NCBI GenBank assembly: GCA_951406725.2
Contig: OX597818.1
Coordinates: 22,692,001-22,756,000, forward strand
Direction of reading: 5' to 3'
DNA length: 64,000 nucleotides
From: Octopus vulgaris
Taxonomy: Eukaryota
Shown: positions 11,975 through 56,050 of the stretch, piece by piece
How positions within the stretch are numbered: the first letter of the stretch is position 1
Layout of the letters: each line of letters starts with the position of its first letter
Made by a program: the position numbers and the translations under genes
The notes under the pieces: model-generated
Told to the model about the DNA's origin: nothing
Seen by the model: only the letters and a program-made list of their open reading frames with translations
Databases searched by the model: none

Positions 11975-12181
11975 ATATTTTGCATATGTATATCAAAAGA
12001 TTGACGATCGGTGAACATTTTTGATAAAAAAAATAGGAGTGAAAATACGACGTTTTGAGCATGGATCTTCATCGGATAGAGGAAGAAAGTCCAGAGAAGA
12101 AGAAAAAGAGGAAGGAGCAGTTAGTCTAGAGAAAGGCACGTGTATTTTTGCATGGACCCAAAATAAATGACTGGAAGTTGA

Positions 12182-15539: not shown

Positions 15540-15869
15540 TATTGTACATTATTTTCATTTTTTACATTATTTACATTATTTACATTCGACGGATATTTTT
15601 CCTCATCTTGTTTGTTGTTAACATAACGTTTCGGCTGATATACCCTCCAGCCTTCTTCAGGTGTCTTGGAGAAATTTCGAACCTGGGTTCTCATTCCTTA
15701 GGTATTCTTCGATGTTGTTATTATTATTATAATAATTATTATTGAAGAAGGCTGGAGAGTATATCAGCCGAAACGTTGTGTTAACAACAAACAAAATGAG
15801 GACAAATACCCGTCGAATGTAAATAATGTAAATAATGTACATAATTCCTCATCTCTTAAATATAGAACT
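15540..15869. mobile_element. Penelope-like terminal-repeat remnant: inverted pair of hammerhead-bearing units with TSD
   Basis: ~15565-15659 is inverted at 15743-15840; direct repeat GTATGGTGT at 15531-15539 and 15870-15878. Confidence 0.75.
15620..15665 (-). ncRNA. Minimal type I hammerhead ribozyme motif
   Basis: GACAC-CTGAAGA-a-GGCTG-gagggtatat-CAGCC-GAAA-CG-TT-ATGTT; the inverted copy reads GTGTT, which fully pairs GACAC. Confidence 0.72.
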
Positions 15870-23420: not shown

Positions 23421-23838
23421 AAGGCGGAGAGCTGGCAGAATCGTTAGCACGCCGGGCGAAATACATAGCAGTATTTCGTCTGCCGTTACGTTCTGAGTTG
23501 AAATTCCGCCGAGGTCGACTTTGCCTTTCATCCTTTCGGGGTCGATTAAATAAGTACCAGTTACGCACTGGGGTCGATATAATCGACTTAATCCATTTTT
23601 CTGTCCTTGTTTGTCATCTCTGTGTTTAGCCCCTTGTGGGTAGTAAAGAAATAAGTATTTCGTCTGCCGCTATGTTCTGAGTTCAAATTCCGCCGAGGTC
23701 GACTTTGCCTTTCATCCTTTCGGGGTCGATTAGATAAGTACCAGTTACGCACTGGGGTCGATGTAATCGACTTAATCCGTTTGTCTGTTTTTGTTTCCTC
23801 TCTGTGTTTAGCCCCTTGTGGGTAGTAAAGAAATAGGT
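23421..23838 (+). mobile_element. SINE family B dimer with 15-bp TSD
   Basis: Body repeated from gtatttcgtctgccg; TSD tgcattaattttagt on both sides. Confidence 0.92.
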
Positions 23839-24059
23839 ATGCATTAATTTTAGTGCAATAATTTTGGGATGATTTAAGCAGATGCTCAGTGCCTTTACAA
23901 TGTCAGAAATGTTAGCATTCGTGTTTACATGGTCGTGTTTTGTTGTTGTTTAACCCAGAGACAGCCTGATTGAGCAGATTTTAAATCCAAGGTGTCTTAG
24001 TCGGGTCTAACTTGTTTTTCTTTTAAACAACATAAACCAACATCTGGTCAACAGACGTG

Positions 24060-29214: not shown

Positions 29215-29218
<4 letters not shown>

Positions 29219-29435
29219 GAACCGTTAATCCCTACACATTTTTGTTTCTCTTACTTTTTTTGGTTGTTTTTTTTATTTTTGGCATCTCTCCATTTTTTCC
29301 TCTCAATCCTTCTGTTGAAGAGCGCAGGCTCGAATCATCCAAAGACTTTTCCTTTTTTTCCGGGCGTTAAACTAATACAGCTGGTTGTTGTTCTCGCATC
29401 TGTCTTCGGCTTTTGTTTTCTGTAAATTTGAACTA

Positions 29436-34173: not shown

Positions 34174-34923
34174 CCGTAAATCCTCGAGTATAATCCGCAC
34201 TTTTCCCCAAAATTTAATGGTCAAAATCCCTAGTGCGTACTATATACAAGATTAAAAATGAAAATTATTTTCTAAGCAATTTCCGAGTCTCTATTTGCTG
34301 TCCGGCAATGTTTATTCAGACGCATTTTGTGATGTCGGGCGCGAAAATACCGTAAGCTAAGCCAGAAAGCAATGAAGTCATAAAAGAATCGTCCATAACT
34401 TGCAGTAAGCAACATTTTAAAACGTTATTACTGTTATTACTGCTATTTCTGCAAACAAAATGCACAAAAAAAGTTGCATTATGTTATATATACAATAATA
34501 ATAAAGGACGTTACCGTATACATTTTTACAAACCAAGGACGTTATATAGACCTCTTTGACTCAAGTTAGAGAGGGGTGCGTATTATACACAAGGTTTTGT
34601 GATGTCGGGCGCGAAAATACCTTAAGCTAAGCCAGAAAGCAATGAAGTCATAAAAGAATCATCCATAACTTGCAGTAAGCTACATTTATTAAACGTTATT
34701 ACTGTTATTTCTTTATTTTCTGCAAACAAAATGCACAAAAAAGTTACACGTTGCATGATGTTATAAATATACAATAATAATAAAGGACGTTACAGTATAC
34801 ATTTTTACAATGTATATAGACCTCCTTGACTCAAGTTAGAGAAGGAGTACGTATTATACACAAGGTTTAGGTTTTTCCCCTGCGTATTATACTCAAAGGC
34901 GGACTATACTCGAGGATTTACGG
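34174..34923. mobile_element. Tc2/pogo-type MITE with internal 270-bp tandem duplication
   Basis: TIRs CCGTAAATCCTCGAGTATAATCCGC / GCGGACTATACTCGAGGATTTACGG; TA TSD; 34325-34594 repeated at 34595-34868. Confidence 0.9.
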
Positions 34924-46499: not shown

Positions 46500-46649
46500 A
46501 TTCTATTCTTTTTTCTTTTTCCTCTTAATCCTTTCTGTCGAAGATCGTAGTCTTGAAACGTAAAAGACTTTTCCATTCTTCCCGGGGCGTTAAATACACC
46601 TGTTTGTTGTTCCTACACCTGTCTTCGCCTTTTGTTCACTGTAAATTTG

Positions 46650-46655
<6 letters not shown>
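46500..46655 (+). mobile_element. Short hammerhead-bearing element, unit 1 of tandem trio
   Basis: CTTT-CTGTCGA-AGA-tcgtag-TCT-t-GAAA-CG-TA-AAAG at 46531-46566; followed by (TA)n. Confidence 0.6.
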
Positions 46656-46689
<34 letters not shown>

Positions 46690-46694
<5 letters not shown>

Positions 46695-46905
46695 GCCATT
46701 CAATATGTGACCGCGTGTGTACCGTTGGTGATTTTTTTCCTCCGTTTTCCCTTCTCTGGATCTTTCCTTTTCCTATGTTTCTGACGAAGAGCTCCGCTCG
46801 AAACGTTAAACCCTCCTTCTTCCCTTCCTTCCTGAGCGTCCAATAATACTATATTTATTCCACGTCCTCGCGTTGTTGTGTTTTCATGTTGGGATTAACT
46901 TTATA
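46690..46905 (+). mobile_element. Short hammerhead-bearing element, unit 2; near-identical copy at 50300-50505 (-)
   Basis: Flanked by (TA)n on both sides; non-coding. Confidence 0.8.
46777..46811 (+). ncRNA. Minimal type I hammerhead ribozyme motif
   Basis: GTTT-CTGACGA-a-GAGC-tcc-GCTC-GAAA-CG-TT-AAAC; identical at 50404-50438 (-). Confidence 0.75.
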
Positions 46906-46924
46906 TATATATATATATATATAA

Positions 46925-47115
46925 TGTAATTACGCATGTACTGTTGGTGATTTCGTTTCCATCTTTGGACTTTTCCTTTTCTTTCCTATAGATGAGAAGC
47001 TATGTTCGAAACGTCCTTTCACCGAGCGTTAAGCTAATACTTTTCTTGTGTACATTCTCACGTTCGTTTTTTTTTTTGGTTTCGCTTTTTATTCGTTTAT
47101 TTGAATTGACTATAT
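46925..47115 (+). mobile_element. Short hammerhead-bearing element, unit 3 (decayed)
   Basis: gtactgttggtgattt...tttcctata-GATGAg-AAGC-tat-GTTC-GAAACGTC...gagcgttaa parallels unit 2. Confidence 0.55.
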
Positions 47116-47119
47116 GACA

Positions 47120-47275
47120 GTATTCTATCAGTTTCTGTCTACCAAGTCCATTCAGAATGCTTTGGTCAACCTGACGCTATAGTAGAAGACACTTTCCCAA
47201 AGTGCCACGCAGTGGGACAGAATCCGGGGGACCATGTCGTTGAGAAACAGACTTCTCACAACACAGCCAGCCATA
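47120..47275 (-). mobile_element. SINE family A 5' part
   Basis: gctatagtagaagacactttcccaaagtgccacgcagtgggac. Confidence 0.8.
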
Positions 47276-50296: not shown

Positions 50297-50299
50297 TAT

Positions 50300-50505
50300 A
50301 AAGTTAATCCAAACATGAAAACACAAAGAGAAAACACAACAATGCGAGGACGTGGAACAAATATAGTATTATTGGACGCTCAGGAAGGAAGGGAAGAAGG
50401 AGGGTTTAACGTTTCGAGCGGAGCTCTTCGTCAGAAACATAGGAAAAAGAAAGATCCAGAGAAGGGAAGACGGAGGGAAAAAAATCGCCAACGGTACACA
50501 CGCGA
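50300..50505 (-). mobile_element. Short hammerhead-bearing element in (TA)n
   Basis: Reverse complement of ~46710-46905 with an intact hammerhead motif at 50404-50438. Confidence 0.8.
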
Positions 50506-55299: not shown

Positions 55300-56050
55300 A
55301 TCTATCTTCTCCGCCCACTATTCCTAGGAGGGTCGTGAGGGTAGAATCCTCCGATACTTTCTCCGTAGAAGCCTATCATAAGCAACCGTCATTAGAAGAT
55401 CTGGATGGATTTTCAGCTGTGACCAACTGAGTCTATGGATATTATCCATGCATCCCGTTCTCGGTCTACTCCTTTGTCTCCTGCCGGTTGGCTTGTCTTG
55501 TAGAATGCTGGAGCTGCGCCAACTCCTCAAATTCTTATTTCTTTATTGCCCATAAGGGGCTAAATATAGAGGGGACAAACAAGGACAGACAAAGGGATTA
55601 AGTCGATTACATCGATCCCAGTACGAAATTGGTACTTAATTTATCGACCCCGAAAGGATGAAAGGCAAAGTCGACCTCGGCGAAATTTGAACTCAGAACG
55701 TAATGACAGGCGAAATACCTATTTCTTTACTTCCCACAAGGGGCTAAACACAGAGAGGACAAACAAGGACAGACAAAGGGATTAAGTCGATTACATCGAC
55801 CCCAGTACGTAACTGGTACTTTATTTATCGATCCCGAAAGGATGAAAGGTAAAGTCGACCTCGGCGGAATTTGAACTCAGAACGTAACTGCAGACGAAAT
55901 ACAGCTACGCATTTCGCCCGGCGTGCTAACGTTTCTGCCAGCTCGCCGCCTCAAATTCTACTACCTAATTCAGCCTCCTGTTTTTCATCATTCGTAAATA
56001 TGGTCCCGAGATACTTAAACTCCTCCACTTGTCTCAGTGGTGTTTCACAA
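55300..56050 (-). mobile_element. RTE LINE fragments interrupted by a SINE
   Basis: LRQVEEFKYLGTIF...ELGSRI (55960-56040) and ILQDKPTGRRQRSRPRTGCMDNI (55324-55530). Confidence 0.7.
55536..55950 (-). mobile_element. SINE family B dimer
   Basis: Same duplicated-body structure as 23421; TSD tcaaattct at 55527-55535 and 55951-55959. Confidence 0.9.

Follow-up and report, generated by a model that had tools for sequence, protein, structure and literature searches.

Three short units carrying hammerhead ribozyme sequence lie head to tail, joined by (TA)n, in the 64,000-nucleotide stretch of Octopus vulgaris DNA analysed here (the window), which comes from a microsatellite-rich genome of 2.8 Gb. 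Are they successive monomers of one ribozyme-processed repeat, as an initial annotation proposed, or did they reach this site separately? The trio itself is a real feature: three same-strand units, each with GAAACGT and separated by (TA)n as first described, occupy 46505-47110 (Table 1) and score 118-208 bits on family profiles, against a best score of 11.2 bits in 20 shuffled windows. The profiles, which we call A, B and C, were each built on 29 relatives of one unit, with the copies in the window left out. Each unit scores best on a different profile (unit 1 on A, 129.8 bits over 46516-46652; unit 2 on B, 208.2 bits; unit 3 on C, 118.3 bits), and cross-family scores are 18-64 bits. Units 1 and 2 are 65.7% identical and units 2 and 3 are 70.6% identical, and TRF finds no ~200-bp array at the trio. 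Thus, the trio consists of three units of three families, not of the single monomer in tandem that characterizes non-LTR retrozymes, and the idea that the units are copies of one another is not borne out.

Table 1. Coordinates of the trio, its hammerhead motifs, its relatives in the window and related loci elsewhere in the genome (window positions unless a locus, L, is named).
Feature	Position	Strand	Remark
Unit 1 (u1): 5'-truncated 3' end (pLTR), PLE family A	46505..46652	+	5' edge approximate
Unit 1 minimal type I hammerhead motif, core CTGTCGA	46535..46562	+	stem II damaged; predicted cleavage after A46562
Unit 1 GAAACGT	46555		
(TA)19.5 tract	46653..46691	.	target for the 3' end of unit 1; flanks unit 2 on the 5' side
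Unit 2 (u2): 5'-truncated 3' end, PLE family B	46693..46899	+	least diverged of the trio
Unit 2 minimal hammerhead motif	46777..46811	+	intact; predicted cleavage after T46807
Unit 2 GAAACGT	46800		
TT + (TA)n tract	46900..46922	.	separates units 2 and 3
Unit 3 (u3): 3' end, family C, then TATAT	46923..47110	+	decayed
Unit 3 hammerhead remnant, core TAGATGA	46989..47015	+	broken
Unit 3 GAAACGT	47008		
Solo family A copy, flanked by (GT)n and (TA)n	29218..29434	+	GAAACGT decayed to GAATCAT
Solo family B copy, TA tracts on both sides	50297..50504	-	core intact; 93.5% identity to unit 2
Family C-like copy	11999..12104	-	old, weak; 30.5 bits
Young PLE family copies	L189:2502-L190:4857; L191:3371-9691; L193:3361-9567		
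Family B homomultimer, three units	L200:1300-1950		219-bp period; no TA at junctions
Family B homomultimer, four units	L211:1300-2150		units 215-224 bp apart

The nearest kin of each unit are dispersed. Among the 40 relatives scored for each unit, the closest are 93-97% identical to unit 2, 83-88% to unit 1 and 73-80% to unit 3, out of 2249, 3415 and 583 candidates, respectively, from the DNA search. A profile search of the window recovered the three relatives annotated earlier at 29215 (+), 50300 (-) and 11975 (-), and no further copies; the first is 80.1% identical to unit 1. Family C resembles B (~70%), with which it shares the upstream TTCCGGTCA motif, and by this likeness is likely an older sister of B. 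In each of the three families the 3' end is fixed and runs into TA. Unit 1 ends in GTAAATTTGAAC followed by TA, as do 28/29 of its relatives, and unit 3 ends in TTTGAATTGAC followed by TA, resembling its relatives. The fixed end is present in 29/29 copies of B, 28/29 of A and 19/29 of C, with TATA within 10 nt in 27/29, 22/28 and 13/19 of these, compared to a background rate of 11.6%.

Other repeats share the window with these copies. Directly 3' of unit 3, at 47111-47270, lies a different and very abundant short repeat, with 113 blast matches at ~80% identity in the loci fetched. At 15570-15800, other hammerhead-bearing ends form an inverted head-to-head pair beside ATT repeats (core CTGAAGA; 5-bp stem II GGCTG/CAGCC; GAAACGT at 15632 on the minus and 15770 on the plus strand), which looks like a different Penelope-like element (PLE) family with a typical inverted 5'-truncated copy. 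Two-copy tandem repeats occur at 23470-23840 (184 bp), 55529-55902 (184 bp) and 34325-34868 (270 bp), and the two 184-bp repeats look like one SINE-type repeat on opposite strands.

A complete minimal type I hammerhead is found in unit 2 and at the family level, whereas unit 1 is degraded and unit 3 no longer qualifies. The unit 2 motif comprises stem I (GTTT/AAAC), the core CTGACGA, an extra A, stem II (GAGC-TCC-GCTC), GAAACGT and T. Unit 1 has U at core position 6, as family A does throughout, and its stem II is down to 2 pairs; unit 3 has lost C3 and U4, its stem II is out of register, and stem I is missing its 3' strand, deleted after GAAACGT. The core and stem II first reported for every unit are therefore borne out in unit 2 alone. 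Reading these units as minimal hammerheads with an ACGT palindrome was correct, and all three units retain the palindrome, although the 29215 relative has lost its GAAACGT to decay. Across 54 aligned cores, stems I and II are paired in 91.5% of cells, compared to 88.1% in shuffles, a test inflated by the kinship of the rows, which were chosen by core pattern, and to at most 48% when the strands are slid. The outer stem I pair swaps between G-C and C-G in families A and B. An Rfam search at gathering thresholds returned 0 matches.

The cores also depart from the canonical sequence across whole families. In the family A copies L032-L060, position 6 is U in 27/29 and A in 0/29, and among the matches listed for the core with a 5-nt loop, all have U at this position. 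Many B and C copies, as well as a young sister family described below, have C at position 4. In the available text of Perreault et al. (PMC3088659), the U4C change lowers in vitro activity yet supports viroid infectivity, and A6C cleaves slowly; the term A6U does not occur in those passages. Minimal hammerheads are described in the accessible part of PMC4209133 as cleaving weakly, dimers included.

Could the trio be processed as dimers? The predicted cleavage sites are 245 and 208 nt apart, in keeping with the ~210-250-nt units first envisaged, but the second piece lacks a 3' site that can be cleaved, and both pieces would be chimeric, joining for instance an A tail, TA and a B head. The 208-nt unit could not be released because unit 3 has lost stem I and core bases. 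A strand-swapped dimer of units 2 and 3 would have 0 stem I pairs on either side, and one of units 1 and 2 would have 3 + 3, with the unit 1 stem II at 2 pairs; a natural B-B pair reaches 4/4/4/4. We used such pair counts and set aside constrained double-hammerhead folding energies, which lie 19-29 kcal/mol above the free ensemble, since even a perfect B-B dimer costs 21. Unit 2 is the sole complete hammerhead of the trio, where a retrozyme has at least two consecutive complete units.

Genome-wide, the core pattern of the minimal hammerhead has 15,993 exact matches over all families, and a control pattern has 0. True core numbers must be several-fold higher, because just 8 of 43 neighbouring copies match the pattern exactly. 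Most copies are short. In an unbiased sample of 19 B-type copies, drawn from the first 30 core-pattern matches on one contig (C1), the distance reached upstream of the core is 16-260 nt, with a median of 58; 18/19 extend 83 nt or less, and 7/19 stop at 75-83 nt. One member of this sample (L126) belongs to the young sister family, and its extension value is an underestimate. More broadly, 5' ends are scattered 30-85 nt from the core and grade on to >1.5 kb. A motif ~80-110 nt upstream of the core, beyond the start of unit 2, has 60 exact matches, beyond which 30 longer B copies have between 6 and at least 1500 additional upstream nt in common. In a tree built on 66 ends of family B (41 of them short and 25 long), the short and long labels change at least 14 times, and short and long copies form single groups in 0/200 bootstrap trees; the tree is poorly resolved, with 1/63 branches well supported, and its labels are more clustered than in shuffles, partly from the choice of rows. 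The CTGACGA subgroup that holds unit 2 contains copies reaching 257, 355, 530 and 1123 nt.

Where do the long copies lead? Four of the five longest B copies fetched (L091-L094) cross a CA-rich 3' UTR and then enter a broken ORF with reverse transcriptase (RT), linker and GIY-YIG endonuclease, 61-85% identical in its RT and GIY-YIG remnants to an intact young ORF; the fifth (L095) stops inside the UTR. In L093, the GIY-YIG ORF ends 1.7 kb before the core of a unit 2-type end. Family A is similar: in L197, ORF remnants finish ~690 nt upstream of the core, and in L046 and L112 GIY-YIG ends lie upstream of A copies, while the long A copy L198 yielded no ORF remnant. For family C, no linked ORF was found in 29 loci, and the longer copies from two pattern searches (three distinct) all stop within ~110 nt of the core. 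LINE-type ORF fragments, one RT and one endonuclease, lie beside PLE copies at L091:2764-4689 (-) and L196:2-1216 (-).

A young sister family gives the complete layout: hammerhead end, 950-aa ORF, ~2.8-kb CA-rich 3' UTR, hammerhead end and (TA)n. A protein search gave 15,735 candidates, many of which belong to this family and have identical scores and open frames of 800-1060 codons, and on contig C10 three tandem units of the family, 6164 and 6191 bp apart, are 99.4% identical. This family has probably been active recently. Its core is CCGACGA, with one mismatch in stem I, and its tandem copies differ at their ends: the internal junction reads ...TAAAATTATA joined to CCAC, versus ...TAAAATTATATATA at the terminus. 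The ORF has GLRF, DKG, a CX4CxxC linker and, at the C terminus, a GIY-YIG domain with CxxC..H..H; in L191 these motifs read KPADKGG, CSRSRCNTC (linker) and YCIKCNLC..EH..RH (endonuclease). It has 2864 homologues, and those listed carry PF00078/PF26215/PF01541; direct Pfam matches to the RT and GIY-YIG domains fall below curated cut-offs, and a PDB sequence search gave no match. A selenocysteine, suggested by "1 TGA" in many matches, was discarded, as the TGA lies in an out-of-frame part of the query and is an artefact.

These features are those of canonical EN+ PLEs. Families A and B have an ORF with RT and C-terminal GIY-YIG upstream of the terminal repeat, pseudo-LTRs (pLTRs) or partial tandems are seen in L191, L193 (where the upstream pLTR is 5'-truncated) and L189-L190, and the ends and extents of the copies show 5' truncation and a fixed 3' end. 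The CX2-5CxxC linker, CCHH endonuclease, DKG and bias to a (TA) microsatellite are those of Neptune. By their sequence motifs, the A and B elements fit canonical PLEs of Neptune type; Nematis shares the linker in reduced form. Judged by the criteria in the available text of PMC8557442, the ORF motifs exclude placement with Hydra, Naiad or Penelope/Poseidon.

The initial annotation called for genome-wide checks. The copies are very numerous, with fixed 3' ends running into TA, and in A and B the terminus is shared with Penelope-like elements. Its central proposal, a SINE-like and retrozyme-like family that releases circles, is not supported. It had itself named copies that are truncated ends of long elements as the outcome that would overturn this proposal, and the copies are such ends, with short and long B copies interleaved on the tree and unit 3 uncleavable. 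Nor do the units resemble a tRNA-derived, polymerase III SINE: ARAGORN finds 0 tRNA genes within the 64-kb window, in agreement with the reported lack of a tRNA head, there is no Rfam match, and the 5' ends vary. The alternative it offered, in which the units entered a single microsatellite in separate events, is supported by the mixture of families and orientations among neighbouring copies.

We counted such neighbours in 144 loci of ~3 kb each. Not included were the three self loci, three loci that were overlapping duplicates, five of 10 kb, one split hit, and any hit scoring below 30 bits. Within 350 bp there are 24 pairs, 8 of them head-tail, 10 tail-tail and 6 head-head (binomial p = 0.15 when tested against half being same-strand). 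Of these, 14 join different families, and copy density is 0.21/kb near a copy versus 0.079/kb further out. B copies form 35 tail-to-tail junctions with TA-type spacers genome-wide, and 20 head-to-tail junctions at 17 loci, the latter an undercount because the search pattern requires one particular 5' end. No second A-B-C trio occurs in the 144 loci. In the accessible parts of earlier papers, PLEs tend to insert beside existing copies (PMC6765202) and are marked by 5' truncation, by tandems that are partial and by a bias to microsatellites (PMC8557442), and most minimal hammerheads stand alone, as motifs described as "probably related to truncated PLEs" (PMC4209133).

Altogether, we conclude with high confidence that the trio represents the 3' ends of three families, two of which (A and B) lead to PLE RT and GIY-YIG genes while C is likely B's sister, inserted independently in one (TA)n. 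From known PLE biology, the GIY-YIG endonuclease would nick (TA)n, and the nick would prime reverse transcription from the TA-like sequence at the close of the pLTR, which can offer the target a short TA match. Synthesis would mostly abort after 130-215 nt and leave a stub bearing the hammerhead. The common B stop point sits in the A/T stretch ATTCAAAATGTG, and pairing of the target TA with this stretch could end synthesis there. Stubs would pile up because each insertion leaves TA beside itself, which later families may reuse. Judged by divergence, C probably inserted before A, and A before B. The neighbour, junction and tree data are all explained by insertions that were independent of one another and shared a self-renewing TA target. 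Counting against aborted synthesis, the 7/19 B-type stops at 75-83 nt could also reflect a discrete ~205-nt template.

That last observation is the core of one rival, in which copies of ~205 nt inserted independently but were templated by a short, non-autonomous, SINE-like derivative mobilised by the PLE in trans. The shortness of 18/19 B-type copies and the small number of upstream-motif matches beside the core matches of all families (60 versus 15,993) also suit such a template. The scatter of 5' ends, their gradation to >1.5 kb, and the long copies inside unit 2's own subgroup do not, and the window holds no tRNA head; the position of the common stop in an A/T stretch, if TA pairing does end synthesis there, offers another reason for the pile-up. 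We consider a short template very unlikely. It is also tempting to see the trio as a retrozyme-like, non-autonomous multimer, cleaved as dimers via ACGT into 245- and 208-nt units, circularised and reinserted by a PLE. The units do share an orientation and the palindrome, their spacing falls in the 150-450 bp given for animal retrozymes in the available text of PMC7229834, and derivation of retrozymes from PLE pLTRs is proposed in the accessible part of bioRxiv 10.64898/2026.07.22.740005. However, a multimer of three families only 66-71% alike, with deficient stem I pairing in both dimers and chimeric products, makes this highly improbable for the trio, as do the lack of another A-B-C trio in the 144 loci and neighbours that stand tail to tail as commonly as head to tail. 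A single ancestral unit that was duplicated in tandem on the spot, its copies then diverging, would account for the homology and single orientation of the units; with dispersed copies far closer to each unit than its neighbours are, we give it next to no credence.

True B homomultimers do exist at L200 and L211 and lend the retrozyme reading some support elsewhere in the genome. Among the 11 loci viewed, there are 5 head-to-tail junctions that lack TA; because all of them differ from one another, they did not spread from a shared circle master. In L211, the same broken core recurs in two of the units, a sign of local duplication of a unit that had already decayed. Such data favour local duplication over spread through circles for both multimers. 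Even so, these are the best retrozyme-like candidates in the genome, and L200 would count as a retrozyme by the sequence criterion of Li et al. 2026 (bioRxiv 10.64898/2026.07.22.740005), in the accessible part of which 1 of 9 dimers tested cleaved. The four sequencing runs matched are contigs dominated by other repeat copies; among the joints listed, none agrees with the predicted circle junctions, but contigs cannot show such junctions, and this counts neither for nor against circles. A further scenario, suggested by these arrays, is that the PLE families act as a nursery of retrozymes: target sharing and local duplication would now and then set two or more intact B ends of ~215 nt head to tail, as at L200, L211 and the 20 junctions at 17 loci, and the arrays would then be transcribed, cleaved as dimers in spite of non-canonical cores (C4, U6), circularised and reinserted by the still-active sister element. 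If true, this would account for the clustering of 5' ends at 75-85 nt upstream of the core, though we regard it as unlikely.

To return to independent insertion, the hammerhead of a full-length element likely serves in dimeric processing of tandem or pLTR-flanked transcripts, while in the short stubs it is most likely a passenger. The trio is ordinary transposon debris, because the ends of the three families most likely landed successively in one TA microsatellite. It has a known explanation, in which the families are new and their kind is known, and as the expected footprint of microsatellite-targeting PLEs it has little significance as found. It does warn that mixed piles of truncated PLE ends can mimic retrozyme multimers. 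Two by-products are of modest value. The young family, in which many open ORFs are near-identical and tandems are perfect, could serve for studying PLE target priming at (TA)n, and the spread of non-canonical cores through entire successful families (U6 in A, C4 in the youngest) makes the need of PLE hammerheads for cleavage testable. Were the nursery scenario true, a PLE-to-retrozyme transition would have been caught in progress.

How do these families compare with known systems, as far as the available parts of the papers cited describe them? Searches of the open literature gave no published description of these particular families; a recent octopus repeat annotation (PMC13282606) lists Penelope-like elements, and its available text has "hammerhead" and "Neptune" 0 times. 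The closest likeness is to Neptune-type PLEs (PMC4209133, PMC8557442), which share the RT, the CX2-5CxxC linker, a GIY-YIG domain with CCHH-type residues and a hammerhead in both pLTRs. The ribozymes agree in detail, with an extra nucleotide before stem II (after A9), a G10.1-C11.1 pair, a short stem I and, as in PLE-type hammerheads generally, a palindromic stem III remnant (15.2-16.2). Both are heavily truncated at the 5' end, form partial tandems, have inverted neighbours that are 5'-truncated, target microsatellites and leave thousands of solo motifs. In contrast, the families here have CA-rich 3' UTRs of 0.7-2.8 kb and the non-canonical cores noted above, with U6 in A and C4 in many B and C copies and the young family. 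Hydra and Naiad PLEs (PMC8557442) likewise insert in (TA)n, but Hydra carries DKT with a CxCX5C linker and lacks CCHH, where our element has DKG, GLRF and CX4CxxC, and Naiad has an N-terminal endonuclease, in contrast to the C-terminal one here, and no canonical hammerhead. Schistosome hammerhead SINEs (PMC6765202) are also short, dispersed, hammerhead-bearing repeats; they carry a polymerase III promoter, whereas the units here are ends of coding elements, and no tRNA gene was found in the window. Animal non-LTR retrozymes (PMC7229834; bioRxiv 10.64898/2026.07.22.740005) resemble our units in being ~200-250 bp, non-coding and AT-rich, with a type I hammerhead and kinship to PLE pLTRs. Yet retrozymes are one monomer in tandem, with at least two consecutive complete hammerheads and expression as circles, whereas the trio joins three families across their (TA)n target around one intact motif.
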